Part shown: positions 1,200-62,329 of the stretch, in pieces
Numbering within the stretch: the first letter of the stretch is position 1
How the letters are laid out: every line of letters begins with the position of its first letter
Assembly (NCBI GenBank): GCA_963579905.1
Contig: CAUZIZ010000009.1
Span: 1,333-65,332 of the forward strand
DNA: 64,000 nucleotides
Direction of reading: 5' to 3'
Source of the DNA: Acidobacteria bacterium UBA6911
Lineage (GTDB): Bacteria; Acidobacteriota; UBA6911; RPQK01; JAJDTT01
Translations under genes and position numbers: made by a program
Notes under the pieces: model-generated
What the model was told of the DNA's origin: nothing
Database searches by the model: none
Seen by the model: only the letters and a program-made list of their open reading frames with translations

Positions 1200-1429
1200 C
1201 TAAGCTGAAACTTCAACCACGAGGAAGCGAAGCAACCTTCGCCAATTGACAGAGCCGTGACTGTCAGGGAGCGGGCCCGACAGGGACCATAACCCCAGGC
1301 GCTTCGTTGAAGTACAGGATCCCACTCCCTCACGTTCATGGCTCTGTCAGCGCTGCTAGCGATGATCATGGCAGAGGCAATCCCAGTTTCTTTCTCGAAT
1401 GGGGCCAGGGCTTTCTGGGGCGGGACTGA
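1200..1429 (+). mobile_element. Modular repeat cassette A (L end, REPIN cargo type 1, R end)
   Basis: CTAAGCTGAAACTTCA at 1200-1215. Inverted pair TGACAGAGCCGTGAC..AGGGAG / CTCCCTCACGTTCATGGCTCTGTCA spans 1247-1349. AGTTTCTTTCTCGAATGGGGCCAG..TGGGGCGGGACTGA at 1385-1429. The 3' part recurs inverted at about 13730-13812. Confidence 0.8.
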
Positions 1430-1574
1430 CCTCCATTCAGCAGGATATTGGACAAGGGGAGTGGGGCTTCGACGATTTGATCGAAATCCGGTGGTGGACG
1501 AGAATAGAATTGCGGGGTGCTCGCTTCGATCGAACGAGGACGGACCTGGCTATTTCGAAATGAGGGAGTAGGGG

Positions 1575-2689
1575 ATGAGCGGAATACGGGTTCTAGTAGG
1601 CACACAGAAAGGTGCCTTCATTCTGTCAGCCGATGGCAGCCGTGAGAATTGGGAGGTCAATGTGCCACATTTTGGGGGCTGGGAGATCTTTCACGTCAAG
1701 GGATCGCCCACCGAGCCGAATCGAATCTATGTGTCACAGTTCACCTAATGGTCCCGGTAGACGATCCAGCGGTCCGATGACGGGGGGATACTTGGGAGCA
1801 GGTGGGCAACGAGTTCACCTACGATGGCGAGCCTGGCACCCACCAGTGGTATGACGGCACGCCTCATCCCTGGGAGTTCAAGCGTGTCTGGCATCTCGAA
1901 CCGTCCCTAATCGATCCGGATACGGTCTATGCCGGAGCTGAGGATGCGGCCTTGTTTGTCACCCATGACGCAGGGAAGACATGGCAAGAGCTGGCCGGAC
2001 TGCGCCGCCACGATTCAGGTCCAAAATGGCAGCCCGGAGCCGGCGGCCTGTGTTTGCACACGATCCTTCTTGATCCTACTGAACCCGAGCGGATATTCGT
2101 CGCCATCTCGGCGGCGGGCGCGTTCCGATCCGAAGATGCCGGGAAGACCTGGCAGCCGATCACCCGCGGACTGCGGTCCGAGTACATCCCTGAGCCGGAG
2201 GCCGAGGTAGGACACTGCGTGCACCGGATCGCCATGCACCCCTCGCGTCCCAATGTGCTGTTCATGCAAAAACACTGGGACGTTATGCGCAGCGACGACG
2301 GTGGCGACCACTGGAGGGAGGTCAGTGGAAATCTGACGAGCGACTTCGGGTTCCCGATCGAAGTGCATGCCCACGAGCCCGAGACCGTCTACGTGGTTCC
2401 GATCAAGAGCGACTCGGAGCATTTTCCGCCGGACGGTAAGCTGCGCGTCTATCGCAGTCGGACTGGTGGAGACGAGTGGGAACCGCTCACCAACGGTCTG
2501 CCTCAGCGGGACTGCTACGTCAACGTGCTGCGGGACGCGATGGCCGTCGACTCGCTCGACCCGTGCGGCATCTACTTTGGTACTACCGGCGGACAGGTGT
2601 GCGTCTCAGCCGATGGCGGAGACAGCCGGTCTCCAATCGTCCATGAGCTCCCGAGGGTTGTTTCGGTTGAGGTGCAGACATTGGCGTGA
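1575..2689 (+). pseudogene. BNR/Asp-box beta-propeller (exo-sialidase-like) protein, disrupted
   Basis: ATG 1575 gives [17 protein letters not shown]. In-frame TAA 1746 and TAG 1758, then a frameshift in a G-run near 1785 into ORF 1802-2689. Asp-boxes SEDAGKTW and SDDGGDHW present. Confidence 0.85.
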
Positions 2690-2746
2690 TTGGGGGCGTT
2701 CAGGGACGTGGGCGTCCTGCGCTCGCTGTTGGATCGGGAAACGGAG

Positions 2747-3042
2747 ATGATCTGAATCGTACTTCCCTATCATCTACGAGGACTGGTGGAGTTGGACGGC
2801 GAGGTGGGGCCGAAGTCGAAGGTCCCCCGATCCAGCGAGCCATCCTGGATGCGCTGGAGGCGCACTATACCGCTCTCCGTGCGATGATCCGCGACCATGT
2901 CACGCACAAGCGGCTGCCCTTCCTGAGGTTTTTCGCCTGCGAGCAAGACCTCTCCCATGAACCGCGCGATGCCCCGCTGCCGGACGCAGTCGCCTAGGGA
3001 AAAGAGCCCTTTCTGATCATTGGTGCTATTGCTGGTGGGTAG
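2747..3042 (+). pseudogene. MoaD/ThiS-like ubiquitin-fold protein, disrupted
   Basis: Reads MI*IVLPYHLR..[frameshift]..RPFLRFFACEQDLSH-like..AVA*GKEPFLIIGAIAGG*. C-terminal GG present; internal TGA 2753 and TAG 2995. Confidence 0.8.
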
Positions 3043-3132
3043 GATCTCGGACCGCGCCAGCACTGCGGGTCAGAACAAGCCTGGGGCAAGTGCGGGGACC
3101 GACTAAGGGCCTGCGCAGCGACACATAGACCT

Positions 3133-8384: not shown

Positions 8385-8705
8385 AGCGTCGTGCTGCTGC
8401 GATGCTATTGTTCTCATGCGTGACGCTGGCCCTGGTCAGCTGCTGGAGTCCAGTACTCGATTTCGTCCGTCATGGCTACGCAGTGGACCGCATCGAGTAG
8501 CGCTTGACCGGAGAGGCGATCTTCCCTGCGCAGATTGAAGACTGCAAGGAGGCCATCCGCTGGCTGGGGACGAAGGCGTCGTTGTACGGACTCGACCCGG
8601 CCAGAATGGCGGCATGGGGGCCTTGGCGGCGGGCATCTTGCGGCCCTGCTGGGAACCAGCGGCGGAGTGCTGCAACTGGAGGGGCGCCTGGGCAACCCAT
8701 CAGAT
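8381..8705 (+). pseudogene. Alpha/beta hydrolase (esterase/lipase) fragment
   Basis: [40 protein letters not shown], a frameshift, then [13 protein letters not shown] at 8498 where Tyr is usual; ends at cassette B. Confidence 0.8.
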
Positions 8706-8712
8706 GGTATTG

Positions 8713-8897
8713 TCAGGAGTGCTCCCCCCAGCAGAGTTAACCCCATTCGAGAAAGAAACTTCAGTGTCCCACAGTGGCACGGGCATCCCTGCCCGTGATG
8801 ACCGATCCGTCGAGCCAAGGGCTCGATAATCACGGCCTGGAAGGCCGTGCCACGGTTGGGAATCCTGAACCTGGAACCAAATGAAGTTTTAGCTTAG
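8713..8897 (-). mobile_element. Modular repeat cassette B (cargo type 2)
   Basis: R end CCCCATTCGAGAAAGAAACT 8741-8760. Cargo GTGGCACGGGCATCCCTGCCCGTG..CACGGCCTGGAAGGCCGTGCCAC 8774-8853. L end TGAAGTTTTAGCTTAG 8882-8897. Confidence 0.8.
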
Positions 8898-8966
8898 GAG
8901 GCAGGTTCTCGTACCAGGCCAGGTTAACCATTAGCGGATCGGGGCCGGTAGCGAAGTTGGTGGTCG

Positions 8967-13364: not shown

Positions 13365-13700
13365 GATTCGCTCCTGTGTTTGCTGGCTTTGCTGGGCAAG
13401 GGGAGGTTTCCGCCACTGGGAGCAATTGGATGCCAATCCCTTCCTTGCCGCTATAGACGACCTGACCATTGCCTCCAACGCTGGTGCAGTAGACGACAGC
13501 AACAGCATCGTCGGGCAACACCGGAAGCGATCCTAGTTTAACTGATGCGCGATGGGCAACCTACTTCCTTGCTTTTTTACCTCCATTCCCTGCTGAGACT
13601 CGATCTGTCAGTTCTGGAGAGCAAGCATGGAAGCCGGCTGGTGGGCCGGAGTTGGCGCTGTCTCAACCACGTGCAGATCGCGAGACCAGTGGTCACGATG

Positions 13701-14061
13701 CTAGCCCCGCCACCGGCTGCACCGGATCATGCGAGAAAGAAACTTGGATTGCCTCAGCCATGATAATCGCTAGCAACCCTGACAGAGCCATGACCGTGAG
13801 GGAGTGGGATCCGGAGATCCAACTTAAGGGGCACACTCCGATCGACATCTGTGCGCACCCCTTCGACCTGGAAGCCTGAAGCGCAAGCGAGGGGTTGGGT
13901 AACACCCCGAATCCCCCCGGCTTAGCTGCTTGCCGCGCCTCAGGCCCCTTCGTCCTCCCATTGCACTGCCCTCCAACCCCTCGCTCGCGCTTCAGGCTTC
14001 CTCACGTTTCGTATTATTGGGCGACCTGGAGGTGCGAGTTCCGAATGAAGTTTCAGCTTAG
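13701..14061 (-). mobile_element. Modular repeat cassette C1 (half of cargo 1 plus cargo 3)
   Basis: R end CTAGCCCCGCC..GCGAGAAAGAAACT 13701-13744. GACAGAGCCATGACCGTGAGGGAG at 13781. Inverted pair GGAAGCCTGAAGCGCAAGCGAGGGGTTGG 13870-13898 / 13973-14001. L end TGAAGTTTCAGCTTAG 14046-14061. Confidence 0.8.
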
Positions 14062-14270
14062 TCCCACCCCCGCTGCGCTGCCCCATTCGAGAACGAAACT
14101 TCCGGCTACCGGGGATTTGTGCGTCACTGCGTGGGGAAGGGTTGTCCGGCTCTCTCCTCGGAACCTGGGCTCATTTTGCTAACGGCTCAAGTCGTTCGCG
14201 GCTCTGTCGGGCGTGGCTTCGCAGTTGGTAGTTTAGCTGCAGATGGGATCTCGCTGATGAAGGATCTAAT
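14058..14270 (-). mobile_element. Modular repeat cassette C2 (cargo 6), in tandem with C1
   Basis: R end TTAGTCCCACCCCC..CCCCATTCGAGAACGAAACT 14058-14100 shares TTAG with C1. Cargo CAAGTCGTTCGCGGCTCTG..GGCTTCGCA also occurs at about 55190-55226. Distal end is degenerate. Confidence 0.7.
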
Positions 14271-20481: not shown

Positions 20482-21507
20482 ATGAAGCCCGTGACCGATC
20501 GCTACTCGCGCCAGATTCTGTTCTCGGGGATCGGCCCGGAGGGACAGGAGAAAATCCAAAATGCCCGCGTCGTTCTGATCGGCTGCGGAGCCTTGGGAAC
20601 GGTGAGCGCCGAACTTCTGGTCCGCGCTGGCGTGGGGCGGCTTCAGCTCATCGATCGAGATTTCGTCGAGGAAAGTAATCTTCAACGTCAGAGCCTCTTT
20701 ACCGAGGCGGATGCACGCTCTGCAATTCCCAAGGCGGTTGCTGCCGAAAAGGCCCTCCGATCTATCAACTCCCTGGTGGACATAAGCGGAATCGTCCAGG
20801 ATCTGACCGTTGAAAATATTGAAGACCTATGTCGGGAGAGCGACATCATCGTTGATGGAACCGACAACTTCGAAACCCGATATCTGATCAACGATTTCTC
20901 CGTGAAACGAGGCGTATCGTGGGTTTACGGGGCTTGCGTAGGCAGCTACGGGACTGCCTTTCTGGTCCGTCCGGGAGCTACCTCCTGCCTTCAGTGCCTC
21001 TTTCCCGAGCCCCCGCCTTTGGGAAGCGTGGAGACCTGCGACACTGCGGGAGTCCTCGGCTCGGTAGTCCACGCCGTGGCTTCCTTTCAGGTAGCTCAGG
21101 TCCTGAAGATCCTGGTCGGACAGACTCCCGGGGAACGGGTGCTAAAGGTCGATGTCTGGGAGGATCACTGGCAGCTGATCTCAGCGGCAGGGGCCCGAAA
21201 CCAGGACTGTTCTTGCTGCGGCAAACGAAAATTCCGCTTCCTGGAGGCGGAGGAGCGGACTCACCTGATGCGCCTGTGTGGTAGGGATGCAGTTCAGGTC
21301 CGTCCCAGCCGGATGACCCAACTTGACTTTTCACAGCTGAGCCAACGCCTGACGAAGAGTGGTAAAGTCCGTTACAACCAACACATGATGAGAATTCAGA
21401 TCAACGGATATGAGATCGCCCTGTTCCCCGACGGCCGTTCGATCATCAAGGGAACCGACGATTTTTCGGAGGCTCGAGCAGTCTATGCCAGGTATATTGG
21501 GAGCTGA
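20482..21507 (+). CDS. moeB: MoeB/ThiF family adenylyltransferase
   Basis: RYSRQILF, IGCGALG, DRDFVEESNLQRQ, DGTDNFETR, CLQC and TCDTAG motifs. Confidence 0.9.
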   Translation: MKPVTDRYSRQILFSGIGPEGQEKIQNARVVLIGCGALGTVSAELLVRAGVGRLQLIDRDFVEESNLQRQSLFTEADARSAIPKAVAAEKALRSINSLVDISGIVQDLTVENIEDLCRESDIIVDGTDNFETRYLINDFSVKRGVSWVYGACVGSYGTAFLVRPGATSCLQCLFPEPPPLGSVETCDTAGVLGSVVHAVASFQVAQVLKILVGQTPGERVLKVDVWEDHWQLISAAGARNQDCSCCGKRKFRFLEAEERTHLMRLCGRDAVQVRPSRMTQLDFSQLSQRLTKSGKVRYNQHMMRIQINGYEIALFPDGRSIIKGTDDFSEARAVYARYIGS

Positions 21508-21746
21508 CCTGAGACTTCAGCGATTCGTCGGAACGTCTGAACGTCGCACGTCTCTGCTCCCGGGAAAGTGCTACGAACGGTTTAGACCTGAACGTCGAGC
21601 GGCGAGGCACGCATGACGAATCTCCGGTTGACAGAGCCGTGACCGTGAGGGAGCGAGCCCTGATCAAGGACCGAACCTGGCAGCTTCGCTTTGGAAGTTT
21701 CCCCCTGAATGATCCAGCGTGACTGGGGCGCAATCCCCAGACCTAG
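21504..21746 (+). mobile_element. Modular repeat cassette D (half of cargo 1)
   Basis: L end CTGACCTGAGACTTCA 21504-21519 overlaps the moeB TGA. GACAGAGCCGTGACCGTGAGGGAGCG at 21630. R variant AGTTTCCCCCTGAATGATCCAGCGTGACTGGGGCG from 21696. Confidence 0.75.
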
Positions 21747-24321: not shown

Positions 24322-24793
24322 CTTCAGGGCCGGGTATCCGCGCGACGTGAGGGGCAGAGCCTGCTTCAGCAGGTTTCTCGAGGAAAGGCTCTGGCCAGGA
24401 TCCGTTCCGATCTCCACTAGCAAGGCTCGATCCAGTTCTCAAAGGCAACCAAGATTCGCTCGGGTCGTCATCATGAGGTACAAAGGAGCATCGGAGCGGA
24501 CTTTGGCCGAAGCCCCCACTCGAGAAGCCCACTGAAGCGAGCTCAAGTCTGCACTTTTCCCGAGTACCCGGCCCTGAAGGACCGGTCTATGACGCTTCGC
24601 GCCAGCCTGCTGAAGCAGGCTCCGAGAGCGGGCAGATGTCCAGACCAAACGACTGCTGCGAGCGGGATGATTCGAGAAAGAGTTGCATCCGAAGCCAGGT
24701 TTCGACGCAATCGCCTGTAACACGCCACAACCATACTGAAATCATTGGTTACGTTTTTTCTCCATCCCACCTGTCAATGAAGTTTCAGCCTAG
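24322..24793 (-). mobile_element. Modular repeat cassette G (cargo 5)
   Basis: 24541-24793 is a degenerate direct copy of 49808-50059. Palindromes CCCGGCCCTGAAGGACCGG and AGCCTGCTGAAGCAGGCT. L end TGAAGTTTCAGCCTAG 24778-24793. Confidence 0.8.
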
Positions 24794-37262: not shown

Positions 37263-37464
37263 CTGACCTGAAACTTCAAAGAATCGTCTGCACGTCTGAA
37301 GGTCGCACGTCCCTTGTCTGTGAAAACCGTGGCACGGCCTTCCAGGCCGTGATTGTGGAGCCTCTAGCTCCACGGGCCGGCCATCACGGGCAGGGATGCC
37401 CGTGCCACTACGGGATGTTGACGTTTCTTCCTGAATGATCCAGCGTGGCTGGGGGCTGCACTAA
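37263..37464 (+). mobile_element. Modular repeat cassette E1 (cargo 2)
   Basis: L end CTGACCTGAAACTTCA 37263-37278; cargo 2 at 37329-37408. R variant GTTTCTTCCTGAATGATCCAGCGTGGCTGGGGGCTGCACTAA ends at 37464. Confidence 0.8.
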
Positions 37465-37634
37465 CCTGAAACTTCAATAGGCTCCGGTGGATCGACGTGG
37501 TTCGGTCTCCAGGCCGAAGTATTCTTCTTTTTCGAGCCTTTGGCTCGATACACGGCGGCCTGGAGACCGCCACCACGGCCGGGACTCCAAGTTTCTTTCT
37601 CGAATGGGACCAGCGCTTCCTGGGGGCGAGACTT
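37461..37634 (+). mobile_element. Modular repeat cassette E2 (cargo 4), in tandem with E1
   Basis: L end CTAACCTGAAACTTCA 37461-37476 shares CTAA with E1. Cargo GTGGTTCGGTCTCCAGGCCGAA..GGCGGCCTGGAGACCGCCACCAC. R end AGTTTCTTTCTCGAATGGGACCAGCGC from 37590. Confidence 0.82.
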
Positions 37635-49625: not shown

Positions 49626-50059
49626 TTAGTCCCGCCCCCATTCGAGAAGGAAACTTTTTCCTACTTCTGAATTCATCGCCTGAGCAGAAGGTTTTACTAT
49701 AGCTAACCCTATCCAGGAGTCCGCTTTAGCCGGCTGGAACGAAGCGTATTAGACCGGTCCTTCAGGGCCGGGTATCGGGTCGCGTGAAGTTGAGGCCGCT
49801 TCAGCGGGCTCAAGTTTCACTTCACCCCGATACCCGGCCCTAAAGGACCGGTCTATTACACTTCGCGCCAGCCTGCTGAAGCAGGCTTAGAGTGTGCTCA
49901 GATCTCCAGACCAAACGACTGCTGCGAGCTGGATCATTCCAGAAAGAGTTGGCCTCCGAAGCCAGGTCTCGACGCAATCGCCTGACACCACAACCATTTT
50001 GAAATCGTTGGGTTACGTTCCTTTTCCATCCAAATGTGGAAATGAAGTGTTCAGCTTAG
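49626..50059 (-). mobile_element. Modular repeat cassette F (cargo 5, probably two nested units)
   Basis: R end TTAGTCCCGCCCCCATTCGAGAAGGAAACT 49626-49655. Inverted TAGACCGGTCCTTCAGGGCCGGGTATCGGG / CCCGATACCCGGCCCTAAAGGACCGGTCTA. Internal R-like CTGGATCATTCCAGAAAGAGTT near 49930. L end 50043-50059. Confidence 0.8.
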
Positions 50060-50078: not shown

Positions 50079-50441
50079 TTACTCTTTGTTCAACCACTCG
50101 ATCGGCTGAGGCTGTATCTGATCGTCGGGCCTGGAGCCGGCGTCGTTTCTGCCGCTGCCTTCCAATCGACTGATGATACGCACCGTCATGTCTTGTGTGC
50201 AGGGAATCTGGCAACTCAAACGAACCCCAGTCGCTTGGCGTGCTTCCAACACAGTCCTTTCCGCAGCGGTCATCCGGTTGGGCTCACCCTCGACAAACTC
50301 TACTCGACATGTGGTACAACGCGCGTTTCCGCTGCAGGCGTGTAACTGGTCCACCGCGGCATCGTCGGTCAGCGCCAGGACGAGCCGTTTCCCCTCTTCA
50401 ACATCGAATGTTCCCATACCCTCTACGGTCAGCTTTGGCAT
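50079..50441 (-). CDS. 2Fe-2S ferredoxin-type protein
   Basis: HACSGNARCTTC..RLSCQ cysteine pattern. Confidence 0.92.
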   Translation of the reverse strand: MPKLTVEGMGTFDVEEGKRLVLALTDDAAVDQLHACSGNARCTTCRVEFVEGEPNRMTAAERTVLEARQATGVRLSCQIPCTQDMTVRIISRLEGSGRNDAGSRPDDQIQPQPIEWLNKE

Positions 50442-50479
50442 GTCTTTCCCTTTCTTCTCTGCTAGTGGAATTGGACGAA

Positions 50480-51679: not shown

Positions 51680-51726
51680 CTGTATCCCTCTGCTGCAATC
51701 TGGTAAGCCGAAGATAGAGTTTCCGA

Positions 51727-53073: not shown

Positions 53074-53401
53074 CTCAGCCGTCTCCTAAGTTTTGGACAG
53101 GTAACAGTTCTCAGTATGAAATCATGTTCGGGTTCCAGAAGCAAAGCTCTGGCGCCGCGCAAGCTCCCTGGAAGCGATCGTGTCCTTGATTCATGTCCTA
53201 TTCCAGGCGGGTTTCGACACACTTTATGGATAGCGTCTGGTAGAGCCCAATTGAAGCCATCGGGCACTTGCCCAGATCGCGACGGCCCACTCCACATAGG
53301 CTCCATACTTCTGTTGCACCTGCTCTTCTTTTGCAGCGTTTTTGAGCTGATCTGGGCCGCCGGAATTACCTTATTTGTCCTGCTGGAGGAGGTGCTGTTC
53401 T

Positions 53402-54883
53402 TCAGATCCTCGGGGGACGGTTAGTTGGTGGCTCAGCTGCCCCGATCCCAGCGGTGTGCCATCTTCTCCAGCTTTTCCAGGGTGCCGCATACGCGGGGTC
53501 CCCGGCCAGATTGTCCTGCTCATCGGGATCCCTGCGAAGGTTGTAGAGGGACCTTTCTTGATGCTGGATTCGCTGATCCATCAAGAAAACGAGCTTCCAT
53601 TCTTGGGTTCGTACCATCACGCGGCGGCCCCCATCCTTGCGAAGCTCATCGTAGGCGTCCTCGCTGTAGTCGTGCTCACTGAAGCAGGCGGGACGCCACT
53701 GCTGCATCTCCCCGAGAATCAGAGGCAGAAGGCTTCTTCCCCGAATGTTGTCAGGAGGATCAAACCCGGAAAGCTCCAGCAGAGTCGGCAGGAAGTCCAC
53801 CATTTCAACCGGCTTCTGGACGACATTCCCGGCCGGCAAGCGGCCCGAGGCACTCATGATGAAAGGGACCCGCACGTTGGAGTCATAAAAATCCCGCTTC
53901 TTCCAGACACCGTGCTCTCTCAGCTGGAAGCCTTGATCCGAGTTGATGACGATGATGGTATCGCTCAGTCGGTTGGATTCCTCTAGGACTCTTAGCAGCT
54001 TACCCACCTGATCATCTACCAGTCGGATCATCCCGTAGTAGGTTCCACGGGCCAGCTGAATCTGCTCTGTAGTGAGATCAGGCGCTCCGCCGTAGATGTG
54101 GATGTTCTCCCGCTCGTAGCGCGGCTTCTTGATCAGTTCCGCGGCTGTGGGAAGGGGGAGGTCTATTCTATTTGGGTCAACGTAGTGGGAGGGCGAGATA
54201 TGGCAGGCAACGTGAGGGGCGTGGAAGGAGACGCGCAGGGAGAAGGGCTGGTTGGTTGCCGTCAGTTGCCTCAAGCGCTCAACCGCTCGAGGAACGTCCT
54301 CAACTCCGGAGGCTGGAATGTCCAGTAGTCCGCCGATCATCCACTCATGGGTCTTGGTAAGGACCCGAGAAAGCAGCCGATCTCGCCACTTGAGCCTCAA
54401 GTGCTTGGTTGGCTTTCCGTGACTGTCCAGATCCGCGGGGGGATTCCCGTGCTGGAGCCAGTCCTGACTGAAAGCGTGGAGCTTGCCAACATTCTTTGGC
54501 TGGATACCTGCCTTCTTCCAGAGTTTCAGCAGCGAAGGATAGTGCGGCAGCACCTTCTTCCGGTAAAGACCCCGTGGCTGCGCAGGCTTTCCCATCGCCA
54601 TGATACCGGTCTCGTGAGCGTAGAGGCTTGCCTTCATCGAGGTACGGGAGGGGATGCAGACCGGGTTCTGAACAATAGCCGACTCGAAGTGGATGCCAGC
54701 AGAAGCGATCCGATCCATATGGGGGGGCAGCGCCCAGGACCTGCCGTACGATCCCAGCGCATCGGCACGGCCATCGTCCAACATGATCCAGAGGACGCTA
54801 GGCGGGTCGGCTGGGACTTCCGTTGCGGCAGATGCAGGCACGACCAGCATCGCCAGGAAAAGGAAAATCGGGATGTATCGCAT
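53402..54883 (-). CDS. Sulfatase (choline/arylsulfatase-like), probable frameshift near the C-terminus
   Basis: IMLDDGRAD, CIPSR, VGKLH, SFHAPH, NSDQG and VRVPFI. Near 53487 the more plausible tail lies in another frame (LEKLEKMAHRWDRGS*). Confidence 0.88.
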   Translation of the reverse strand: MRYIPIFLFLAMLVVPASAATEVPADPPSVLWIMLDDGRADALGSYGRSWALPPHMDRIASAGIHFESAIVQNPVCIPSRTSMKASLYAHETGIMAMGKPAQPRGLYRKKVLPHYPSLLKLWKKAGIQPKNVGKLHAFSQDWLQHGNPPADLDSHGKPTKHLRLKWRDRLLSRVLTKTHEWMIGGLLDIPASGVEDVPRAVERLRQLTATNQPFSLRVSFHAPHVACHISPSHYVDPNRIDLPLPTAAELIKKPRYERENIHIYGGAPDLTTEQIQLARGTYYGMIRLVDDQVGKLLRVLEESNRLSDTIIVINSDQGFQLREHGVWKKRDFYDSNVRVPFIMSASGRLPAGNVVQKPVEMVDFLPTLLELSGFDPPDNIRGRSLLPLILGEMQQWRPACFSEHDYSEDAYDELRKDGGRRVMVRTQEWKLVFLMDQRIQHQERSLYNLRRDPDEQDNLAGDPAYAAPWKSWRRWHTAGIGAAEPPTNRPPRI

Positions 54884-54892
54884 TGTTTCGAC

Positions 54893-55074
54893 CTTAGGGT
54901 CTAAGCAAAAATAACTTGGCATTTTGGCATCTCATCTTCATACCATCTTCGGCCGCTCGCGAAATCCTCAATGTAGACCAGGCTACGCCTGAGGTTTCGC
55001 TCAATCGTTCGCGGCCAAATCTGGTGCAAATCTGAGCGCCAATTCTACCAAGTTATTCTTGCGCAGACCCTTAG
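54893..55074 (-). mobile_element. MITE family M3, copy 1
   Basis: CTTAG at both ends; TIR GGGTCT..GCAA(A/G)AATAACTTGG. Degenerate reverse complement of 57172-57360. Confidence 0.9.
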
Positions 55075-55245
55075 TCCCGTTACCCGGAGCGCTAGCCCCA
55101 GTCGAGAAAGAAACTTCGGTTGAGTACGGGGGAGATTTTGCTGCTGACCGGCTCTCTCTTTGGAATCTGGGTTGATATTGCTAGCGGGTCAAGTCGTTCG
55201 CGGCTCTGCCGGACTTGGCTTCGCAATACGGGTAGTTCACCCGTC
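55071..55245 (-). mobile_element. Modular repeat cassette H (R end plus cargo 6), abutting MITE M3
   Basis: TTAGTCCCG..GCGCTAGCCCCAGTCGAGAAAGAAACT 55071-55115. Downstream sequence matches about 14150-14235. Confidence 0.7.
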
Positions 55246-55280
55246 CGTGGGTTCGTTGGCTTCCCAGGTTTCCGTATTGT

Positions 55281-55349
55281 TCACTGCTCACTGCTCACTG
55301 CTCACTGCTCACTGCTCACTGCTCACTGCTCGCTGCTCGCTGCTCGCTG
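55281..55349 (+). repeat. Heptamer tandem repeat (TCACTGC/TCGCTGC), about 10 units
   Basis: Directly visible. Confidence 0.95.
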
Positions 55350-55528
55350 GCCGGAGTATACCAGCGTAGTCAGCGTGAATAGAATTTCCAGCGTCTGGAA
55401 CGTCTAATAGAAGATTTTGAGGTTCTAGACTGGTCTTCAGGCTAGAATTGGTCTAGCCAAGCTCTTAGGGGCGTCGTGCTCTGCGTCTTGTGCTAGAAAA
55501 GATGGATTGAATCTTGTCAGGAGAGGCG

Positions 55529-57175
55529 ATGGGTGGTTACTACCTGAAGTGGAGCCGAGCCGATAAACCCGAGACCTTTGATTTGCTCCAGGAGGAGACA
55601 TTCATCGGGCGTAGGTCGGACTCCGGGATTGTGCTGCGGGATCCGTATGTTTCTAGGCGACATGCCAAGCTGGTCCAGAACGAAGGCGGCTTTACCCTTG
55701 TCGACCTGGAGAGTACTCATGGCACCTTCGTCAACGGGCTCCAGATCAAGGAACAGAACCTGAAAGAGGGGGATTGTATCCAGCTGGGTAGGGGGGATGT
55801 CGAGTTGATTTTTCTTTCCCCCGGCTACGTTGGAGCTCCCAACACGATGATCGTGGACCGAGATCTCCAGAAATCGGTTCTGCAATTGTCCACGGTCCTA
55901 CCCTCGGCCACAGCCAAGTCCTCGGACTTGGAGAAGATATCGCATGTCCTCGATTTCCAATATGAATGGGAAAAGAGTTTTTCTGCTGAGAAGACCTTGC
56001 AGCAACTCCTGGGATCGGCCCTGGACGTGAGCGGCGCCGAGCGGGGCTTTCTTCTGACTCGTACTCCTGAAGGGTTCAGCTATGTTGCGGGAATGAACCA
56101 TAAGAGCCAGCTTCTTTCCGAGCTGGAGTTCCAGACGAGCCAGAGTGTCGTCGAGCAGGTGGACCGAGAGGGAAAGCCGCTTTTCATGACCGAGGGGATT
56201 GACCAGAATCTTGCTAAGCAGGAGAGCATCGTCAACCTTCAGCTTCGTGCTGTGGCTTGTATGCCGCTGAAATGGCTGTCTTCCGAGTCAGAGGCTCCGG
56301 TAGTAAGGGGCATCCTTTACCTCGACAGTACCAGAACCATGCACACGTTGACGGGACTCGATCAGAAGATTCTAACCAGAATCTCCGTTGAGGTCGGTAA
56401 CGTCTTCGAAAAACTGGAGCTGATCCAGAGTCTGGAGCAGGGACGAGTGGTCGAGAAGGAACTGGCCTTGGCTCAGGCGACTCAGCAGGCGCTTCTCCCG
56501 CAGGAGATACCCGACTCGGAGCACTTCTCAGTCCACGCCTACAGCAGTCCCACCCGCTACGTCGGTGGAGACTACTACGATTTTCTAGGCGGGGGCGCGG
56601 GAGGTCTAACAGGTGTACTGGCGGATGTTTCCGGGAAGGGTGTGTCGGCGGCTCTCTTGAGTTCCTTCCTGCAGGGAGTGCTGGAGGCGGAGTATCAGTC
56701 TGGGGCCCCCCTGGATGAAGTCCTCAATCGCACCAATCGGCATCTTTATCAGAAAACGCAGAGCAATCGATTCGTAACACTCTTTCTCTTCAGTCTCAGC
56801 GGTAGCGGAGAGGGCGCCTATATCAGTGCCGGTCACAACCCCGCTTATTTGTTACGGTCTTCGAGCGGTGAGGTCGAGGAACTGCCCTCGAAGAATCCGA
56901 TTCTGGGGGCCTTTGATTTTGTTACCTATGAGACCACCCCTTTTCAGCTGCAACTCGGCGATCTACTAGTTGTCTACTCCGACGGTGTGACCGAAGCGAT
57001 GGATCCGGATGGCAATATGTTCGAAGAAGAGAGGTTGATCCAGCTTGTGCAGGAGTTCGGGCCCTCCGGTGGGGAGGTTCTCGAAGAGAAGATCCTGGAG
57101 TCACTCGACCAGTTCACGCGAGGCATGTCCCAGTCCGATGACATTACGTTTCTCCTGATCGAGAGGATTGCCTAA
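55529..57175 (+). CDS. FHA-GAF-PP2C (SpoIIE/RsbU-like) protein phosphatase
   Basis: FHA motifs IGR, VSRRHA and STHGTFVNG; central GAF; VGGDYYD, ADVSGKG, YSDGVTEA and DDIT. Confidence 0.93.
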   Translation: MGGYYLKWSRADKPETFDLLQEETFIGRRSDSGIVLRDPYVSRRHAKLVQNEGGFTLVDLESTHGTFVNGLQIKEQNLKEGDCIQLGRGDVELIFLSPGYVGAPNTMIVDRDLQKSVLQLSTVLPSATAKSSDLEKISHVLDFQYEWEKSFSAEKTLQQLLGSALDVSGAERGFLLTRTPEGFSYVAGMNHKSQLLSELEFQTSQSVVEQVDREGKPLFMTEGIDQNLAKQESIVNLQLRAVACMPLKWLSSESEAPVVRGILYLDSTRTMHTLTGLDQKILTRISVEVGNVFEKLELIQSLEQGRVVEKELALAQATQQALLPQEIPDSEHFSVHAYSSPTRYVGGDYYDFLGGGAGGLTGVLADVSGKGVSAALLSSFLQGVLEAEYQSGAPLDEVLNRTNRHLYQKTQSNRFVTLFLFSLSGSGEGAYISAGHNPAYLLRSSSGEVEELPSKNPILGAFDFVTYETTPFQLQLGDLLVVYSDGVTEAMDPDGNMFEEERLIQLVQEFGPSGGEVLEEKILESLDQFTRGMSQSDDITFLLIERIA

Positions 57176-57360
57176 GGGTCTGCGCAAGAATAACTTGGTA
57201 GAATTTGCGCTCAGATTTGCACCAGATTTGGCCGCGAACGATTGAGCGAAACCGCAGACGTAGCCGGGTCTACGTTGAGGATTTCGCGATTGAGGAGCGG
57301 CCGAATCTGGTGTGAAGATGAGATGCCAAGATGCCAAGTTGTTTTTGCGCAGACCCTAAG
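57172..57360 (+). mobile_element. MITE family M3, copy 2
   Basis: CTAAG at both ends; TIR GGGTCTGCGCAAGAATAACTTGG / CCAAGTTGTTTTTGCGCAGACCC. The left TAA is the phosphatase stop codon. Confidence 0.9.
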
Positions 57361-57444
57361 AGAGGAGGGGCTTCAAATTGCTGGCAGTTCTGGCCGTTGG
57401 TGGCACTGTTTCGCGCTGGCTTCATTATCCAGAGATGCCTTCCT

Positions 57445-57487
57445 CAGCAACCAGCAACCAGCAACCTGCGACCTCCAACCTGCAACC
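57445..57487 (+). repeat. Degenerate heptamer repeat (CAGCAAC/CTGCAAC), about 6 units
   Basis: Directly visible. Confidence 0.8.
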
Positions 57488-57537
57488 GATAGGTCTTGCG
57501 TCCGCCGTGCCCGGAATCTACGATTGTGAAGTAGAAA

Positions 57538-60330
57538 ATGGCGAGCAATAGCGGATCAGGCGAGACCAGCCTCTCTAACAAGCAGTTGGGCGATTACGAA
57601 ATCCTCGATCTTCTCGGGAGTGGAGGGATGGGTGAAGTGTATCGTGCCCGAGACAACCGCTTGGATCGCCAGGTGGCCATCAAGGTGCTGCCCAACGAGT
57701 TCACGGAGGATCCGGAACGGTTGGCTCGCTTTGAGCGCGAGGCCAAGCTGCTGGCATCACTCAATCACAGCAACATTGGCGCGATCTACGGTTACGAGGA
57801 GGCCGAAGGTCAGAAGTTCTTCGTCTTGGAGCTGGTTGAGGGTGAGACGCTCGCACAGCGGTTGGATAAAGGGCCTTTTCCGCTACGAGATGCCCTCAGA
57901 GTCGCGATTCAGATCGCCGAGGGCGTAGAGGCCGCGCATGAGCGAGGAGTCATTCATCGCGACCTGAAACCTGCAAATGTCAAGTTGACTCCGGATGGTA
58001 GGGTCAAGGTTCTGGACTTCGGCCTGGCCAAGGCGCTGGAGCGGGAGGAGGAGTCCCCTCGGATCGATCTAACCCGATCTCCAACACTGACCCACGACTC
58101 GACTCGTGCCGGCGTCATTCTGGGCACGGCTCCCTATATGAGTCCAGAGCAGGCTGAAGGAAAGTCGCTCGATCCGCGATCCGACATCTTTTCTTTTGGT
58201 TCCCTGCTCTACGAGATGATTACGGCTCAACAGGCGTTCTCAGGTGACACCCAGACGCGAGTTCTGGCTGCCATCCTGGAGAAGGATCCGAAGCCGATTG
58301 GCGAGATTGTCCAAGGGACACCACCCGAGGTGGATCGGATCATCGCCCGATGTCTTCGCAAGGATCCTGGACGTCGATTCCAGCACATGCAGGACTTGAG
58401 GCTGACGCTCGAGGATTGCCTACACGATCAGGAAGTTCCTTCTGCTCGGAAGCGTCGAGATGGGTCAGTCCTATTGTGGAAGCGGATGGCGGTTGCCTTG
58501 GGTGTCCTACTGGTGCTGGCTCTGGGATTGTCGACCTACCGCTGGGCCCGGCACCGACTTCACGACCGGCAGCCGGTTCTCAGCCGTGTCACCTCGGTTT
58601 CGGGACTCACCATTGATCCGGCATTTTCCGGCGACGGTAGCCTATTGGGATACGCCTCCGATCGCAGTGGGGACGGCAACCTGGATATCTGGATCCAACA
58701 AATCGGTGGAGGCGTCTCCCGTAGAACTGCTCACTTAGCCGACGACCGTCAACCTTCGTTCCATCCGGATGGCACCAAAGTAGTCTTTCGTTCCGAGAGG
58801 GCTAGCGGAGGTATCTACTGGACAACGACGCTGGGCGACGAAGCCAGCCCCAGATTGATGGTGGAAGAGGGCCGTCGGCCTCGAGTTTCCCCTGACGGCA
58901 GCCAGATTGCCTACTGGATTGGCCAGATCGGATCGGGATACAAACGGGGAAGTCTCTACACTATCGCATGGGGGGAGAGTCTTCCCCTCCGGTTGACCCC
59001 AGACTTTGCCGTGGCTAGTCACCCGGTCTGGTCGCCCGATGGAGAGTACATTCTGTTTCTGGGTTGGCCTGAAGCCAACACGATGGAAGACGAGGATTTT
59101 GATTGGTGGATGGTGAGCCTCGAAGACGGCAAGACTCAAGCTCTGGGAATGGGCAGGAGACTGACTAGGCGTGGGCTGAGTCAACCCGTCATTCCCAGTG
59201 TGTGGGTTGAAGATAGCAATGAATTGATTTTTTCGGCAACAATGGGAGACAGCACCAACCTTTGGCAGGTTCCGGTATCGACTCTCACGATGTCGATCTC
59301 TGGCCCGTTGGAACAGCTAACTGCTGGGGTAGGTCCCGAGCTGCAGCCCCACGCGGTTGCTCCCAATAAGATCGTATTCTCAACCCAAATGGAGAACCTC
59401 GACCTCTGGAGCCTCGACATCGATGCGGATGCCGGCCGAGTGCCCGAGCGGGCTGAGTTGAAGCGTTTGACGAATCACGCCGGCGAGGACTCCCAGCCAT
59501 CCTTATCAACGGACGGAAATAAGGTTGCCTTCGTCTCGACCCGATCCGGCAATCCTGATATCTGGTTGATGGATCTGCAGGCCCAGACGTCGATCAACCT
59601 GACTGCCACTCCGGGGGACGAACGGTGGCCAAAAACAGGGCTAACCGGTTCCCGGGTGGCATACGGTACCCGAACCCGAAGTGCCGAGCGTTGGACCATC
59701 TATACGGTTGAAACGGAAGGAGATCTGACCCGAAGGAAGAGTTGTGGCGACTGTGGCCGGCCACTCGATTGGTGTTCGACTGGAGACTATATTCTCTACG
59801 TCAAAGGCCAATCCAATCGAAGCGTGTGGATGTTGGAGGAGGCGACCTCTCGGAAGGTGAAGTTATTGGAGCACCCGGAATTCGACGTAATCCAGGCTCG
59901 CCCTGATCCCAGCGACCGCTGGATCGCCTTTACGGTTGAGGAGGAGCCGCTCAAGGCCCGAGTCTACATTGCTCCTTTTCGGATGGAGGATCTGGCGGAT
60001 GAAGCCGGGATTGAAACGACCCAGTGGATGCCTGTGACTGATGGTCAGCGCTGGGACGGGATGGCCCGATGGTCACCGAACGGAAACTTCCTGTATTTCG
60101 TATCTGACCGCGGGGGGTCTCGGGGTATTTGGGCCCAGAGGCTCGAACCCAGCAGTAAGAAACCCATAGGTACCCCACGCTTGATCCGACACTTTGAAGA
60201 AACTCGTTTGTCGCTCTCAGGAGTCTCACCTGGCTCCCTCAGGATCAACGTGGCCAAGGACAAGATCGTCTTTACGCTGAGAGAGATGACGGGCGATATC
60301 TGGCTGGTGGACTTGAGCAGCCGGGATTGA
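57538..60330 (+). CDS. Hanks-type Ser/Thr protein kinase with a TM helix and TolB/PD40 beta-propellers
   Basis: LGSGGMGEVY, VAIK, HRDLKPAN, DFG and YMSPE motifs; repeated P..S.DG..h motifs. Confidence 0.96.
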   Translation: MASNSGSGETSLSNKQLGDYEILDLLGSGGMGEVYRARDNRLDRQVAIKVLPNEFTEDPERLARFEREAKLLASLNHSNIGAIYGYEEAEGQKFFVLELVEGETLAQRLDKGPFPLRDALRVAIQIAEGVEAAHERGVIHRDLKPANVKLTPDGRVKVLDFGLAKALEREEESPRIDLTRSPTLTHDSTRAGVILGTAPYMSPEQAEGKSLDPRSDIFSFGSLLYEMITAQQAFSGDTQTRVLAAILEKDPKPIGEIVQGTPPEVDRIIARCLRKDPGRRFQHMQDLRLTLEDCLHDQEVPSARKRRDGSVLLWKRMAVALGVLLVLALGLSTYRWARHRLHDRQPVLSRVTSVSGLTIDPAFSGDGSLLGYASDRSGDGNLDIWIQQIGGGVSRRTAHLADDRQPSFHPDGTKVVFRSERASGGIYWTTTLGDEASPRLMVEEGRRPRVSPDGSQIAYWIGQIGSGYKRGSLYTIAWGESLPLRLTPDFAVASHPVWSPDGEYILFLGWPEANTMEDEDFDWWMVSLEDGKTQALGMGRRLTRRGLSQPVIPSVWVEDSNELIFSATMGDSTNLWQVPVSTLTMSISGPLEQLTAGVGPELQPHAVAPNKIVFSTQMENLDLWSLDIDADAGRVPERAELKRLTNHAGEDSQPSLSTDGNKVAFVSTRSGNPDIWLMDLQAQTSINLTATPGDERWPKTGLTGSRVAYGTRTRSAERWTIYTVETEGDLTRRKSCGDCGRPLDWCSTGDYILYVKGQSNRSVWMLEEATSRKVKLLEHPEFDVIQARPDPSDRWIAFTVEEEPLKARVYIAPFRMEDLADEAGIETTQWMPVTDGQRWDGMARWSPNGNFLYFVSDRGGSRGIWAQRLEPSSKKPIGTPRLIRHFEETRLSLSGVSPGSLRINVAKDKIVFTLREMTGDIWLVDLSSRD

Positions 60331-60492
60331 AATAGTGCTCTGTATCCGTTAGTACCCCATAGTCTAGGGTTCCTTGGTCGATGAAAAGTTCACAGACTGG
60401 TCAAGTTGTGGAATACAAGAGAAAGTCCTGGGCCTTTGAGAGAACACTGGTAGAGGTCGTGCTGACGCCTATCGCTGCGAGTATCGAGATAA

Positions 60493-60752
60493 GTCAACCC
60501 CAACGGGGTTGCGTCTTATAGCCCAGGGTTTCCGAACCCTGGGATGCGCGGGATAAATCAAGCCCTTGAGGACTCCTATGTAGCTCTAAAGATCAACCCT
60601 GTAGGGGTTGTGGAAGGTGAGGACCACGGCGCAATCGCGCACAGCTTGAAGCAGGAGGCCATAACCCCTACAGGGTTGGGATCAAAAGGGATGGCTGTTT
60701 GCCCAGGGTTAGGAAACCCTGGGCTGTACGCCGCAACCCCGTTGGGGTTGAC
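60493..60752. repeat. Free-standing nested palindromic REPIN-like element
   Basis: Arms GTCAACCCCAACGGGGTTGCG..AGCCCAGGGTTTCC.AACCCTGGG and their reverse complement; inner AACCCTGTAGGGGTT / AACCCCTACAGGGTT. A half-copy lies near 24030-24077. Confidence 0.88.
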
Positions 60753-60818
60753 CTCGCTGATGTCGGCGGTATGAGGCCGCTCGCTACGTCTAGGTTATTA
60801 CTTCAAAGGAGACGATCC

Positions 60819-61475
60819 ATGAATTCGTTCTCGAAAGTGCAGGTACCAGGGCCGGAAGAGGCTCTTCCAGGGCGTCAGGAGCAGATGCCTGTGGCGGAGT
60901 CTCACTTTATTCTGAAAAGCCCTCTGAGTCCTTCTTTTCCAGAGGAAATGGAGCTAGCTCTTTTCGGTATGGGCTGTTTCTGGGGCGCCGAGAGAAAGTT
61001 CTGGGAGGCGGAGGGCGTTTTTTCTACAGCGGTCGGTTATGCCGCGGGGCTCACTCCGAATCCCACCTATCAGGAAGTCTGCAGCGGCAGAACCGGACAC
61101 AACGAGGTGGTGCAGGTTGTGTTCGACCCAGGTTCTACCAACTACGAGGTCATGCTCAAGATTTTCTGGGAAAGTCACGATCCCACCCAGGGGATGAGGC
61201 AGGGCAACGATATGGGGACCCAGTACCGGTCGGGAATCTACACGTTCTCAGGCGAGCAGTCGAGCTTGGCTGAGACTTCTCGAAGTGCCTTCCAGGAGAT
61301 GCTGACCCAGGCCGGATTCGCCGCCATCACGACGGAGATCCTGGCCGCACCCGAATTTTACTACGCCGAGGATTACCACCAGCAATACCTGGCCAAGAAC
61401 CCCTATGGATACTGTGGTCTGGGTGGCACCGGGCTAACCTGTCCAGTTGGATTGAGCGCGGTTGAGGGCCGCTAA
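60819..61475 (+). CDS. msrA: Peptide-methionine (S)-S-oxide reductase
   Basis: [25 protein letters not shown] and AEDYHQQYL. Confidence 0.97.
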
Positions 61476-61490
61476 CTGACCGATATCGGG

Positions 61491-61932
61491 ATGAGTTGGC
61501 TCGGGGGAGGCCGAAATCCAAACCAAACAGATTTCTGAAGACCTGGTTTCCGAGCCCTCAGCGGATGCAGGCGGCTCCGGTTATGACTGTCTGGCTCCAG
61601 ACGGTTCCGAGATTCGCCTGCTGCTGGCTCGAAAAGGAGGGAGTCTGGTCCACTGCAGTCTTGGAGCGGGCCAAGTATCGGCGCCGGTTCGCCATCAAAC
61701 GGTGGAGGAGCTCTGGTATTTCATCGAAGGGCAGGGAGAAGTCTGGCGCAGGCCTCCGGGAGCGGCAACCGGTGAGGTGACCTTGGTGCGACCTGGAACC
61801 GCCCTCGACCTACCGGTAGCAACCCACTTCCAGTTCAGAAACACGAGTACCCGGCCTCTGCGGTTCATCATCGTCACGATGCCCCCCTGGCCAGGTGACG
61901 AAGAAGCAGTACCGGTTGACGGTATCTGGTAG
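61491..61932 (+). CDS. Cupin domain protein; start possibly frameshifted
   Basis: Frame open from 61495: LAPDGSEIRLL..H..VRHQTVEELWYFIEGQGEVW..HFQFRN..MPPWPG. The nearest ATG (61491) is one base out of frame. Confidence 0.8.
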
Positions 61933-62329
61933 TAGCGGTGGCCTCCAGGCCCCCGTCCCTCGAGCCAGAGGCTCGAAAGAAAGAAGACTTCGGCCTGGAG
62001 ACCGAACCCACGTCCTGATCCCGCAAGCAAAGCGAAGTCTCAGCTCAGCCCCACCCCCAGCAGCGCTGGCCCAATTCGAGAAAGAAACTTCGTCTGAATT
62101 CATCATCTACGCTGAAGGCGTTATTGCGTGTAGCCCAGGGTTGCAATGCGAAGCGAGCTGCCCTGGGTTTAAGTTGTCCCCTGCCTTTCCTACGCTGAAA
62201 GCGTTGTTGCCAATACGCCGCGGTCCGCAATAACCCCGTTGGGGTATGGGCCTTTAGCGAATCTGACCCAGGGTAGCTCGCTTCGCATTGCAACCCGGGG
62301 CTACACGCAATAACACCTTCGGCGTAGAT
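61932..62329 (-). mobile_element. Modular repeat cassettes I1 and I2 in tandem (cargo 4 and cargo 7)
   Basis: Cargo 4 at 61932-62014 (reverse complement of about 37494-37575). Degenerate L CGAAGTCTCAGCTCAG 62033-62048. R TCAGCCCCACCCCCAGCAGCGCTGGCCCAATTCGAGAAAGAAACT 62045-62089. Long palindrome 62105-62329. Confidence 0.8.

Follow-up and report, generated by a model that had tools for sequence, protein, structure and literature searches.

Fixed end motifs and variable inner segments in the window

The stretch analysed here, 64,000 nucleotides of an Acidobacteria bacterium UBA6911 genome (the window), carries in its intergenic spacers a series of short units, each built from two fixed end motifs, a 16-bp motif called L and a ~45-bp motif called R, and from variable inner segments, called cargos, that lie between them. 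The window belongs to contig C9, from a draft assembly (G000; 5.71 Mb, 311 contigs, 57% G+C, 95% complete), which was compared with five other genomes of the same genus (G001 to G005). An initial annotation of the window had described the units as non-autonomous elements with asymmetric ends and unrelated inner segments. G000 bears this out, with 260 complete units and 49 clusters of cargos.

Units were called in the window by the criteria used genome-wide, a regular expression for L and an nhmmer model for R. Each of the nine loci named in the initial annotation was read, and all of them hold L and/or R (Table 1). Units 1, 2, 3 and 7 are clean and complete, and unit 6 is a further unit with a weak R (E 0.49). 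Partial or decayed units are seen at 21504, 24778, 49627-50059 and 55083, and R runs into a following L at three R-L junctions. The R-like stretch of unit 4 (~21696-21740) is decayed and was recognised by eye, the R model giving no match there at E ≤ 1. A diverged L occupies the corresponding position of this locus in G001, G004 and G005, where the rest of the spacer differs. The inner segment of unit 8 consists of a relic of a transposase 3' end and a REPIN (a hairpin-forming doublet of repetitive extragenic palindromic, REP, sequences), and its whole ~480-bp fill is absent from four relatives, whose spacers measure 46-138 bp. At locus 9, the orthologous site in G001 holds different units.

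Table 1. L/R units in the window. Positions are those of the window; RE and LE are the right and left ends of the transposase-bearing element described below.
Feature	Position	Strand	Description
Unit 1, complete	1200..1427	+	clean
Unit 1 L (RE)	1200..1215	+	exact match; homologous to RE of the G001 element
Unit 1 cargo	1216..1384	+	palindromic GACAGAGCCGTGAC-type module; cluster 3, 21 genome copies
Unit 1 R, first ~45 nt of LE	1385..1432	+	small hairpin CCAG..CTGG; ends GGGA-CT, then target-type GACC
Unit 2, complete	8718..8897	-	L 8882-8897; cargo 8763-8881 (cluster 4, 15 copies); R 8718-8762
Unit 3, complete	13702..14061	-	L 14046-14061; composite cargo 13747-14045 (singleton cluster); R 13702-13746
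Partial unit upstream of unit 3	14059..14200	-	R 14059-14102 abuts L of unit 3; before R, CGCGAACGACTTGAGCC module of cluster 0
R-L junction	14046..14102	-	partial unit and unit 3
Unit 4, old	21504..21740	+	L 21504-21519 overlaps stop codon of open reading frame 20482-21507; inner segment begins GATTCGTC..ACGTCTGA
Unit 5, decayed	24322..24793	-	L 24778-24793; transposase 3'-end relic GTAACCAATGATT; degenerate R-like stretch; REPIN of RAYT-associated type
Unit 6	37263..37463	+	L 37263-37278; cargo 37279-37423; R variant (CTGAATGATCCAGCG type) 37424-37463
R-L junction	37424..37476	+	units 6 and 7
Unit 7, head-to-tail with unit 6	37461..37633	+	L 37461-37476; cargo 37477-37587 (cluster 1, 28 copies); R 37588-37633
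Unit 8 (locus 7)	49627..50059	-	degenerate L 50043-50059 (one extra base); short hairpin-less R 49627-49656
Unit 9, partial (locus 8)	55083..55300	-	R 55083-55118; cluster-0-like cargo; tandem heptamer repeat in place of L
Locus 9	61932..62330	-	REPIN-type cargo ~62093-62330; R 62047-62092; L 62033-62048; cluster-1-like cargo 61932-62032, no R after it
R-L junction	62033..62092	-	locus 9

The L/R pattern is genuine and lies far beyond chance. The window contains nine matches to the L pattern at up to two mismatches, compared with 0.42 on average and at most 3 in 100 shuffles; one of them, at 61265, has two mismatches, lies inside an open reading frame (ORF) and is probably a chance match. For a 17-mer of R, eight matches were found at up to three mismatches (shuffles: mean 0.13, maximum 2). 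Across G000, L occurs 486 times, 273 of them exact. R was found 369 times by simple matching, and an iterated nhmmer profile, which revealed several R variants, raised this number to 455 (E ≤ 0.01) or 485 (E ≤ 0.1).

Tabulation of pairing, orientation, spacing and cargo after the profile scan of the whole genome yielded a near-invariant order rather than random orientation. Among 503 neighbouring pairs less than 1 kb apart, L is followed by R in 260 and R by L in 188, while two L or two R succeed each other in 24 and 22 pairs, respectively. Mixed orientation is limited to nine pairs, so that the fixed relative orientation first noticed in the window holds genome-wide. An earlier first-pass pairing (n = 412) had given 211 L-R, 133 R-L and 11 mixed pairs.

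The consensus sequences first given for L and R were right, and can be refined in two respects. R and L overlap where they meet, R...GGGA-CT-AAGCTGAAACTTCA forming one unbroken string of ~57 nt, with R and L starting 39 nt apart in 49 and 42 nt apart in 39 of 123 junctions (88 together). Moreover, the inverted segment common to both ends measures 8 bp (GAAACTTC / GAAGTTTC) and not 6 bp; it is imperfect and lies at the outer edges of the R-L junction. A small hairpin is present in 208 of 328 copies of R (shuffles: mean 102.5, maximum 130). Its stems differ between copies (CAGC/GCTG, CCAGG/CCTGG, CCAGC/GCTGG, CCGGC/GCCGG), and one common R variant has no hairpin. No Rfam family reached its gathering score anywhere in the window.

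L and R bound an IS110-family element

A copy whose ends flank a transposase gene, of the kind anticipated in the initial annotation, is present in G001, where an IS110-family gene lies between L and R. At this locus (L036), L occupies positions 619-634 and a 465-amino-acid (aa) ORF runs from 619 to 2016 on the opposite strand. The ORF ends with ..NEVSG-stop within L, and L, read on the complementary strand, supplies its final codons and the stop. A non-coding stretch of 237 nt precedes the start codon, and an R variant at ~2205-2253 abuts the next L. Two further, damaged copies in G001 span exactly R to L, as the full-length element does. The full-length element itself sits in an array, beside the relic of an older right end.

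The 465-aa protein matches PF01548 (N-terminal DEDD, RuvC-like domain; E 1.7e-26, residues 26-172, profile positions 1-153 of 155), PF02371 (C-terminal Transposase_20; E 1.5e-6) and the NCBIfam model NF033542, 'IS110 family RNA-guided transposase', with 218.8 bits (cut-off 140, positions 2-342 of 343). G003 carries a second intact ORF (51% identical; NF033542, 237.8 bits), whose right end is the L variant CTGAC and whose left end is truncated. In G000, contig C58 holds a deletion derivative in which the transposase gene is reduced to its 3' half, 77% identical to the G003 sequence, between L and an R-L junction. A sequence search of the PDB with the G001 transposase gave no match at E ≤ 0.01, and a search for related loci in a collection of species-representative genomes returned the three G001 copies only.

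On the transposase strand, L is thus the right end (RE) and R the start of the left end (LE) of an insertion sequence (IS). The ends of the G001 element are asymmetric and without terminal inverted repeats, and the RE stops 0-13 nt past the stop codon. The IS110 subgroup has this layout, in which the left end is long and non-coding and the right end very short (PMC11208160). Of the enzymes first considered as mobilisers, the IS110-like one is therefore represented by the G001 element. No such link was found for HUH-type enzymes, as 12 loci of Y1 transposase genes in the relatives lack a full R and G000 has no TnpB match.

Most IS110-family genes of the relatives, whose assemblies are nearly complete (33 matches in G001, 38 in G005, 21 in G004, four in G003 and one in G002) belong to other elements that have no bounding L and R. 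The high-copy families of G001 (333 aa), G005 (424 and 436 aa) and G004 (379 aa) were considered as the parent and rejected, as they are not bounded by L and R. One of these, a 1.7-kb element of G005 with the 424-aa ORF (loci L035, L040 and L044), inserts precisely into the REP module GCGAGTAGCCCAG|..GCAATGCGAAGCGAGCTACCCTGGG, a module that also serves as cargo in L-R units, as at window locus 9. A group II intron (RF02001, 120.6 bits; RF01998, 48.8 bits) lies at L036 2541-2826 in G001, ~300 bp from the full-length element.

Short units insert whole at a CT dinucleotide

Two orthologous sites that are empty in a relative were found, and each shows insertion of a whole unit. On contig C20 of G000, the 5' end of a gene for a REP-associated tyrosine transposase (RAYT) is occupied by a unit of 231 bp, made up of L, a cluster-3 cargo and R. 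The flanks of this unit are adjacent in G003 (93-94% identity) save for ~2 unaligned bases, the AT before CT, and four further copies of the site, in G001 and G004, likewise lack the unit. Unoccupied, the site reads ..GC-AT-CT-GACCTGG.., whereas the filled site has the left junction ..AT-CT-AAGCTGAAACTTCA and the right junction ..ATCGA-CT-GACCTGG... The second site, that of locus 8, is empty in G004 and filled in G005 by a clean L-cargo-R unit in the order target-left, CT, L...R, CT, target-right. In both comparisons CT is the sole sequence common to element and target, and no target duplication is seen. A duplication of CTRR or of 8 bp is ruled out, because, of 116 units, only 17 have the same bases after CT at both ends (L start and R end).

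Target choice can be read from solitary ends. The 204 solo copies of L show zero information upstream of CT, with a sharp boundary there. The 152 solo copies of R are followed by CT and then by RA.CTGAAAC, with information fading over ~10 nt and GACCTG as the commonest hexamer (32/152). The preferred target thus resembles the start of L. With such a target, new copies would land at the CT of an existing L and give rise to head-to-tail R-L arrays. The R-L junctions of chromosomal arrays have the sequence expected of the abutted RE-LE junction of a circle, and are indistinguishable from circles.

From these data we conclude, with a probability of about 0.8, that L and R are the RE and LE of an IS110-family IS and that the L-cargo-R units are non-autonomous derivatives of it, mobilised in trans as whole units. 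Units of 130-330 bp would retain the termini only and carry other inner segments, the recombinase acting in trans. Recombination joins element and target at CT (AG on the transposase strand) without target duplication. Fresh copies would settle beside older ones and build the arrays, and any DNA between an L and a following R could move as a cassette.

Head-to-tail arrays and a single crossover point are also what cassettes of a tyrosine or serine recombinase would produce, in the manner of an integron with the R-L junction as an attC-like site. The imperfect inverted segment of 8 bp noted above and secondary insertion sites that resemble the core would suit such a system. Integron cassettes have attC sites that are recombined by the tyrosine recombinase IntI beside an attI/integrase platform. 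Yet the IS110-family transposase is the sole gene found between L and R, integrase genes not having been searched for. The arrays are also short, and instead of clustering beside an integrase, a class of gene to which the same limit applies, they are spread across hundreds of intergenic sites. We regard this explanation as extremely unlikely.

Cargos are diverse, of fixed length and shared between unrelated loci

The inner segments of the complete units measure 100-270 nt (median 181). Their clusters comprise 13 with 4-70 copies, five with two copies and 31 singletons. The 13 multi-copy families have fixed lengths, occur at unrelated loci and always lie between L and R. Some cargos start with a relic of the transposase 3' end, namely cluster 13, those at window loci 5 and 7 and, as judged by eye, cluster 10. 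For cluster 0, the commonest cargo, no clear homology to the IS body was seen. It had been considered at the outset that the ends might match the termini of a known IS whose internal deletion explains all cargos. The ends do match, but deletion accounts for some cargos only: those starting with a 3'-end relic, and the remnant on C58.

Several repeat modules are tied to the end motifs. Within 350 nt of L or R lie 206 of 228 occurrences of the GACAGAGCCGTGAC palindrome, 61 of 72 of the CCGTGGCACGGCC palindrome and 195 of 253 of the CGCGAACGACTTGA module, compared with 48 of 139 for a REP type that flanks a RAYT gene. As no background expectation was computed for this distance, the contrast between modules tells more than the absolute fractions. 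The association between cargo family and R variant is real but weak, with a mutual information of 0.287 that none of 1000 shuffles reached (maximum 0.253). Each cargo family pairs with several R variants, which indicates that ends and cargos have been reshuffled. Most simply, cargos would be gained when the stretch between an L and some later R of the same array is excised, and when other repeats insert into units.

The same end motifs could instead be fossils, left by full-length IS copies that decayed in place, with REPs inserted between the surviving ends and short units that were never mobile. G000 retains only a truncated transposase, the left-end RNA region was not found there, some cargos begin with 3'-end relics, and copies within a cargo family share median identities of 81-97%, all of which fit gradual decay. 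What speaks against it are the two whole short units at sites that are empty in relatives, and the 13 fixed-length families with 4-70 copies at unrelated loci, which independent decay in place cannot produce. In addition, short units outnumber full-length copies by roughly at least 100 to 1. We therefore consider decay in place unlikely as an explanation of the units, and retain mobilisation in trans.

Distribution and genomic context

Exact copies of L number between 90 and 323 in each of the five other genomes of the genus, 0-1 in nine genomes of the sister genus and 0-2 in 16 more distant genomes; the motif is confined to one genus. Its abundance can be set beside the transposases of the L/R-bounded type. 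G000 has one truncated copy and 273 exact L, G001 one intact and two broken copies and 99 L, G002 one truncated copy and 90 L, and G003 one intact ORF plus one truncated copy and 106 L, whereas no such transposase was found at E ≤ 1e-30 in G004 (323 L) and G005 (222 L). The short units thus far outnumber their parent and persist where it is undetected. This suggests either that they are orphans in these genomes or that another enzyme moves them.

Unit arrays are dispersed over 447 clusters in G000. With a crude home-made gene caller, 331 clusters could be placed relative to genes, 82 more lying at contig edges. Units are found between convergent genes in 124 of 331 cases (37%), compared with 710 of 4222 background intergenic spaces (17%), between co-directional genes in 158 and between divergent genes in 49. 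The gene upstream of the unit is co-oriented with it in 215 of 331 cases, the gene downstream in 140.

The over-representation between convergent genes is shared with REPs and would be expected if the units were a mosaic like bacterial interspersed mosaic elements (BIMEs) or REPINs, spread by RAYTs (HUH Y1 enzymes) with L and R as extra-palindromic linkers. Many cargos are indeed palindromic, and four Y1_Tnp loci of G000 are flanked by inverted REPs. Nevertheless, the 12 Y1 loci of the relatives contain no full R and one L-like string with two mismatches, and the sole full R among the 13 loci scanned is that of the C20 unit, itself inserted at the 5' end of the RAYT gene. That R might be the coding start of this gene is ruled out, because orthologous RAYT loci have no R. 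L is the coding end of an IS110 gene, the junction lies at CT without a GTAG-type head, and the RAYT-type REP is mostly independent of L and R, other modules being tied to them as described above. In REP/REPIN-RAYT systems the repeat is inverted around its RAYT gene and cut by an HUH Y1 enzyme; L and R are not arranged in this way, and other REPs flank the Y1 genes. Spread by RAYTs is thus very unlikely. Derivatives of IS200/IS605 elements, similar to palindrome-associated transposable elements (PATEs), were also rejected, as no TnpB match exists in G000, the loci of IS200-like genes have neither L nor R, and L has no common hairpin because the starts of the cargos differ. Derivatives of that type share their ends with a TnpA (Y1)/TnpB element, have subterminal hairpins at either end and insert 3' of a 4-5-nt target.

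Host-selected regulatory motifs (promoter, terminator or 3'-untranslated-region structure) that are not mobile DNA were weighed as well. L together with the cargo start 'agaat.cgtc' (21504-21560 and 37263-37320) gives TGAAAC/TGAGAC, a spacer of 16-17 nt and CGTCTGA, an arrangement kept at locus 4 in G004 and G005. We take this TGAAAC-N16/17-CGTC string to resemble a promoter of an extracytoplasmic function (ECF) sigma factor. The presence of L at the same position of locus 4 in four species and the co-orientation of units with the upstream gene would likewise be compatible with a regulatory role. The downstream gene is too seldom co-oriented for L to be its promoter, and L as a -35 box for that gene is ruled out; L as a motif that provides a stop codon holds at locus 4 only. 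Moreover, species differ in the presence or absence of units, and L is the end of a transposase gene and has no Rfam match. Like an integron-type origin, a purely regulatory one is hardly credible, and we hold to IS110-derived mobile units.

A candidate bridge RNA and points that weigh against mobilisation in trans

In IS621, the 5' guide is reported to span 8-9 nt and the 3' guide 4-7 nt, and both include the core (PMC11208160). The left end of the G001 element contains a 9-mer, GCAGGTTAG, twice, and its last eight bases, CAGGTTAG, equal the RE terminus plus core of that element. The left end of the G003 copy has CCAGGTCAG as its second string, whose last eight bases match its own terminus, CAGGTCAG, and a first string that keeps AGGTTAG. 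The two left-end strings look as left-donor and left-target guides should, and the 237-nt non-coding left end probably encodes a bridge RNA, the guide segments of which would read target and donor. Among copies of L, CTAAC outnumbers CTAAG only in G001 (94 vs 74). A consensus fold of three left-end sequences shows two compensatory pairs.

A number of results do not sit easily with the units being mobilised by such an enzyme and guide RNA. On the RNA side, the terminus variant CTGAC of G003 is not enriched in that genome, and in the non-coding region of G001 we found no guide on the 3' side that would pair with the left-end start. The left-end fold reaches a z-score of only -2.08 against shuffles, 6 of 200 of which fold as well, and Rfam gave no match to the left end at E ≤ 1. 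Solo copies of L are unconserved across CT, where a right-target guide of 4-7 nt predicts some conservation. As regards the enzyme, the initial annotation saw no mobilising gene in the window, and PF01548 has no match in the whole G000 assembly, which thus lacks an intact transposase; an nhmmer profile made from the left-end RNA region gave nothing better than E 2.9 in G000. G004 and G005 are rich in L without a cognate transposase at E ≤ 1e-30. In addition, derivation from the IS does not account for most cargos, and most bursts are not recent, given the identities within cargo families.

The missing transposase and left end of G000 may reflect the assembly, since repeated copies may simply be unassembled in a draft of 311 contigs and 95% completeness. 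The units in G000 are probably largely orphaned by now. The 12 L..R intervals of 500-6000 bp in G000 contain no recognisable mobile-element gene. Four of them, all shorter than 800 bp, have no called gene, and the others hold presumed host genes, including two 689-aa translations that read by eye as UvrB-like and dehydratase-like.

A more far-reaching possibility, which we consider rather unlikely, is that the R-L junction is both donor site and preferred target, every L a docking site and all L-to-R DNA exchangeable, so that the units form an RNA-guided, integron-like platform across the genome. The GACAGAGCCGTGAC palindrome and the CGCGAACGACTTGAGCC module, nearly exclusive to L/R units, could be retained as trans-acting or split guide RNAs. 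Trans-acting guides might let other IS110 enzymes of G004 and G005 move units without the cognate transposase.

Comparison with known systems

The closest relative in kind is MITEPpu9 of Pseudomonas putida KT2440, which means that the view of the units as no described class was too strong. The IS110-family element ISPpu9 is reported to recombine at AG, and MITEPpu9 consists of the ssr9 small RNA gene between copies of both ISPpu9 ends; it is excised as its own circle, exists in eight copies and occurs both linked to ISPpu9 and alone (PMC12288879). The units described here share with it a transposase-less module between both IS ends, the AG on the transposase strand (CT in our orientation), a palindrome near the left end and intergenic repeats as targets. 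MITEPpu9 as described there has one cargo, whereas at least 13 multi-copy cargo families and 260 complete units occur in one draft genome here, and units are present in all six genomes of the genus that were searched (6/6). Also unlike MITEPpu9 in that description, the present units target the right end of their own element, so that arrays form. MITEPpu9 is the only IS110-derived transposase-less element found in our literature searches, supplements of the papers being outside the scope. The kind of element is therefore already known; what the present case adds is its scale, the variety of cargos, arrays formed by self-targeting and a host among the Acidobacteriota.

Likenesses to IS621 and the IS110 group, as far as the source describes them, are the DEDD transposase, a long non-coding left end and very short right end, the absence of terminal inverted repeats and of target duplication, a shared core dinucleotide and a specific target in an intergenic repeat (PMC11208160). 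The core reported for IS621 is CT, whereas here it is AG on the transposase strand, as in ISPpu9. A further difference from IS621 is that the bridge RNA proposed here is suggested by two guide-like strings only, and that the protein has no sequence match to solved structures. Recognition by the donor arm alone suffices for copy-out excision, according to a preprint (10.64898/2026.08.31.748434). Expanded IS110 loci described in a second preprint resemble our arrays in re-insertion at occupied sites, tandem non-coding units beside the IS, 'half-match' boundaries and cargo gain, but they keep their transposase and grow larger, whereas the units here are miniature, transposase-less and dispersed (10.64898/2026.08.14.744561).

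Classical MITEs (miniature inverted-repeat transposable elements) are likewise short, non-coding, high-copy, IS-derived and moved in trans; the L/R units differ from them in having neither terminal inverted repeats nor target-site duplication. Intergenic mosaics with short fixed motifs between variable repeat modules are also represented by the BIMEs of Escherichia coli and by the Neisseria intergenic mosaic elements (NIMEs, dRS3/RS), and dRS3 is the target of an IS110-like recombinase. The fixed motifs of BIMEs and NIMEs are targets or REP heads, whereas in L/R units they are the two termini of a mobile element. A mosaic that looks like REPs or BIMEs can thus arise from an IS110-type element and not from RAYTs, which bears on the annotation of intergenic repeats.

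Bridge recombinases, currently under development as programmable tools for genome editing, stem in nature from IS110 elements, and very little is known about the minimal DNA that such an enzyme needs there to move a passenger. The genus offers a natural data set on this question, with hundreds of mini-donors that have a right end of ~16 bp, a left end of ~45 bp and many unrelated passengers. It provides junctions at nucleotide level, a one-sided target consensus that fits the 'half-match' proposal and mini-elements that persist without their enzyme.

Other repeats, genes and rearrangements near the units

The gene downstream of unit 1 (1575-2689) looks split by a frameshift, with one ORF at 1575-1748 and another frame at 1802-2689, and DNA conservation with relatives begins at 1475. 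At loci 1, 2 and 3 (1100-1500, 8640-8960 and 13620-14200), the flanking genes are not neighbours in G001, G003, G004 and G005, while synteny with the relatives is intact over 46270-64000. L/R units may thus mark rearrangement breakpoints at loci 1-3, that is, three of the nine window loci, and such repeats may bear on genome rearrangement.

The RAYT gene beside the inserted unit on contig C20 (784-1203; L002) has H-L-P (DDHLPLAV) at the position of the HUH motif, so that the enzyme may be inactive; its homologues are multi-copy in G004. A second RAYT-type Y1 gene, on contig C125 (6170-6607; L001 1480-1940), lies between inverted REPs of its own. Codon 6 is an in-frame TAA (MPQSL-stop), but the rest of the frame is open and the HUH motif is present.

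A classical MITE of ~170-180 bp with the terminal inverted repeat GGTCTGCGCAAGAATAACTTGG lies at 54898-55069 and 57177-57355. Its 199 repeat ends in G000 are flanked by CTTAG (71) or CTAAG (64), i.e., CTWAG, so that the CTAAG with which L begins is a frequent insertion site; at locus 8, the MITE interrupts a junction between R and target. The heptamer repeat of this locus (55250-55330, minus strand) comprises ~10 copies of GAGCAGC/GAGCAGT, and a similar GTGAGCA run precedes the G001 cargo at locus 9.

Three further segments of the window recur in G000 or its relatives. A 171-bp repeat at 25403-25573 with the inverted ends CTAGTGCAGC...GCTGCACTAG is probably another MITE; it gave 21 BLAST matches in G000, including its own locus, and has many copies of 92-96% identity in G001, G003 and G005. 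A segment of ~280 bp at 23629-23910 has 37 BLAST matches in G000 and many copies in G004 of 82-83% identity, ~20 of them among the matches listed. Finally, a single-copy stretch of ~290 bp at 18495-18783, which overlaps a weak ORF call at 18477-18707, is 89-93% identical in G001, G003, G004 and G005 despite broken synteny, and could be a small gene or RNA.

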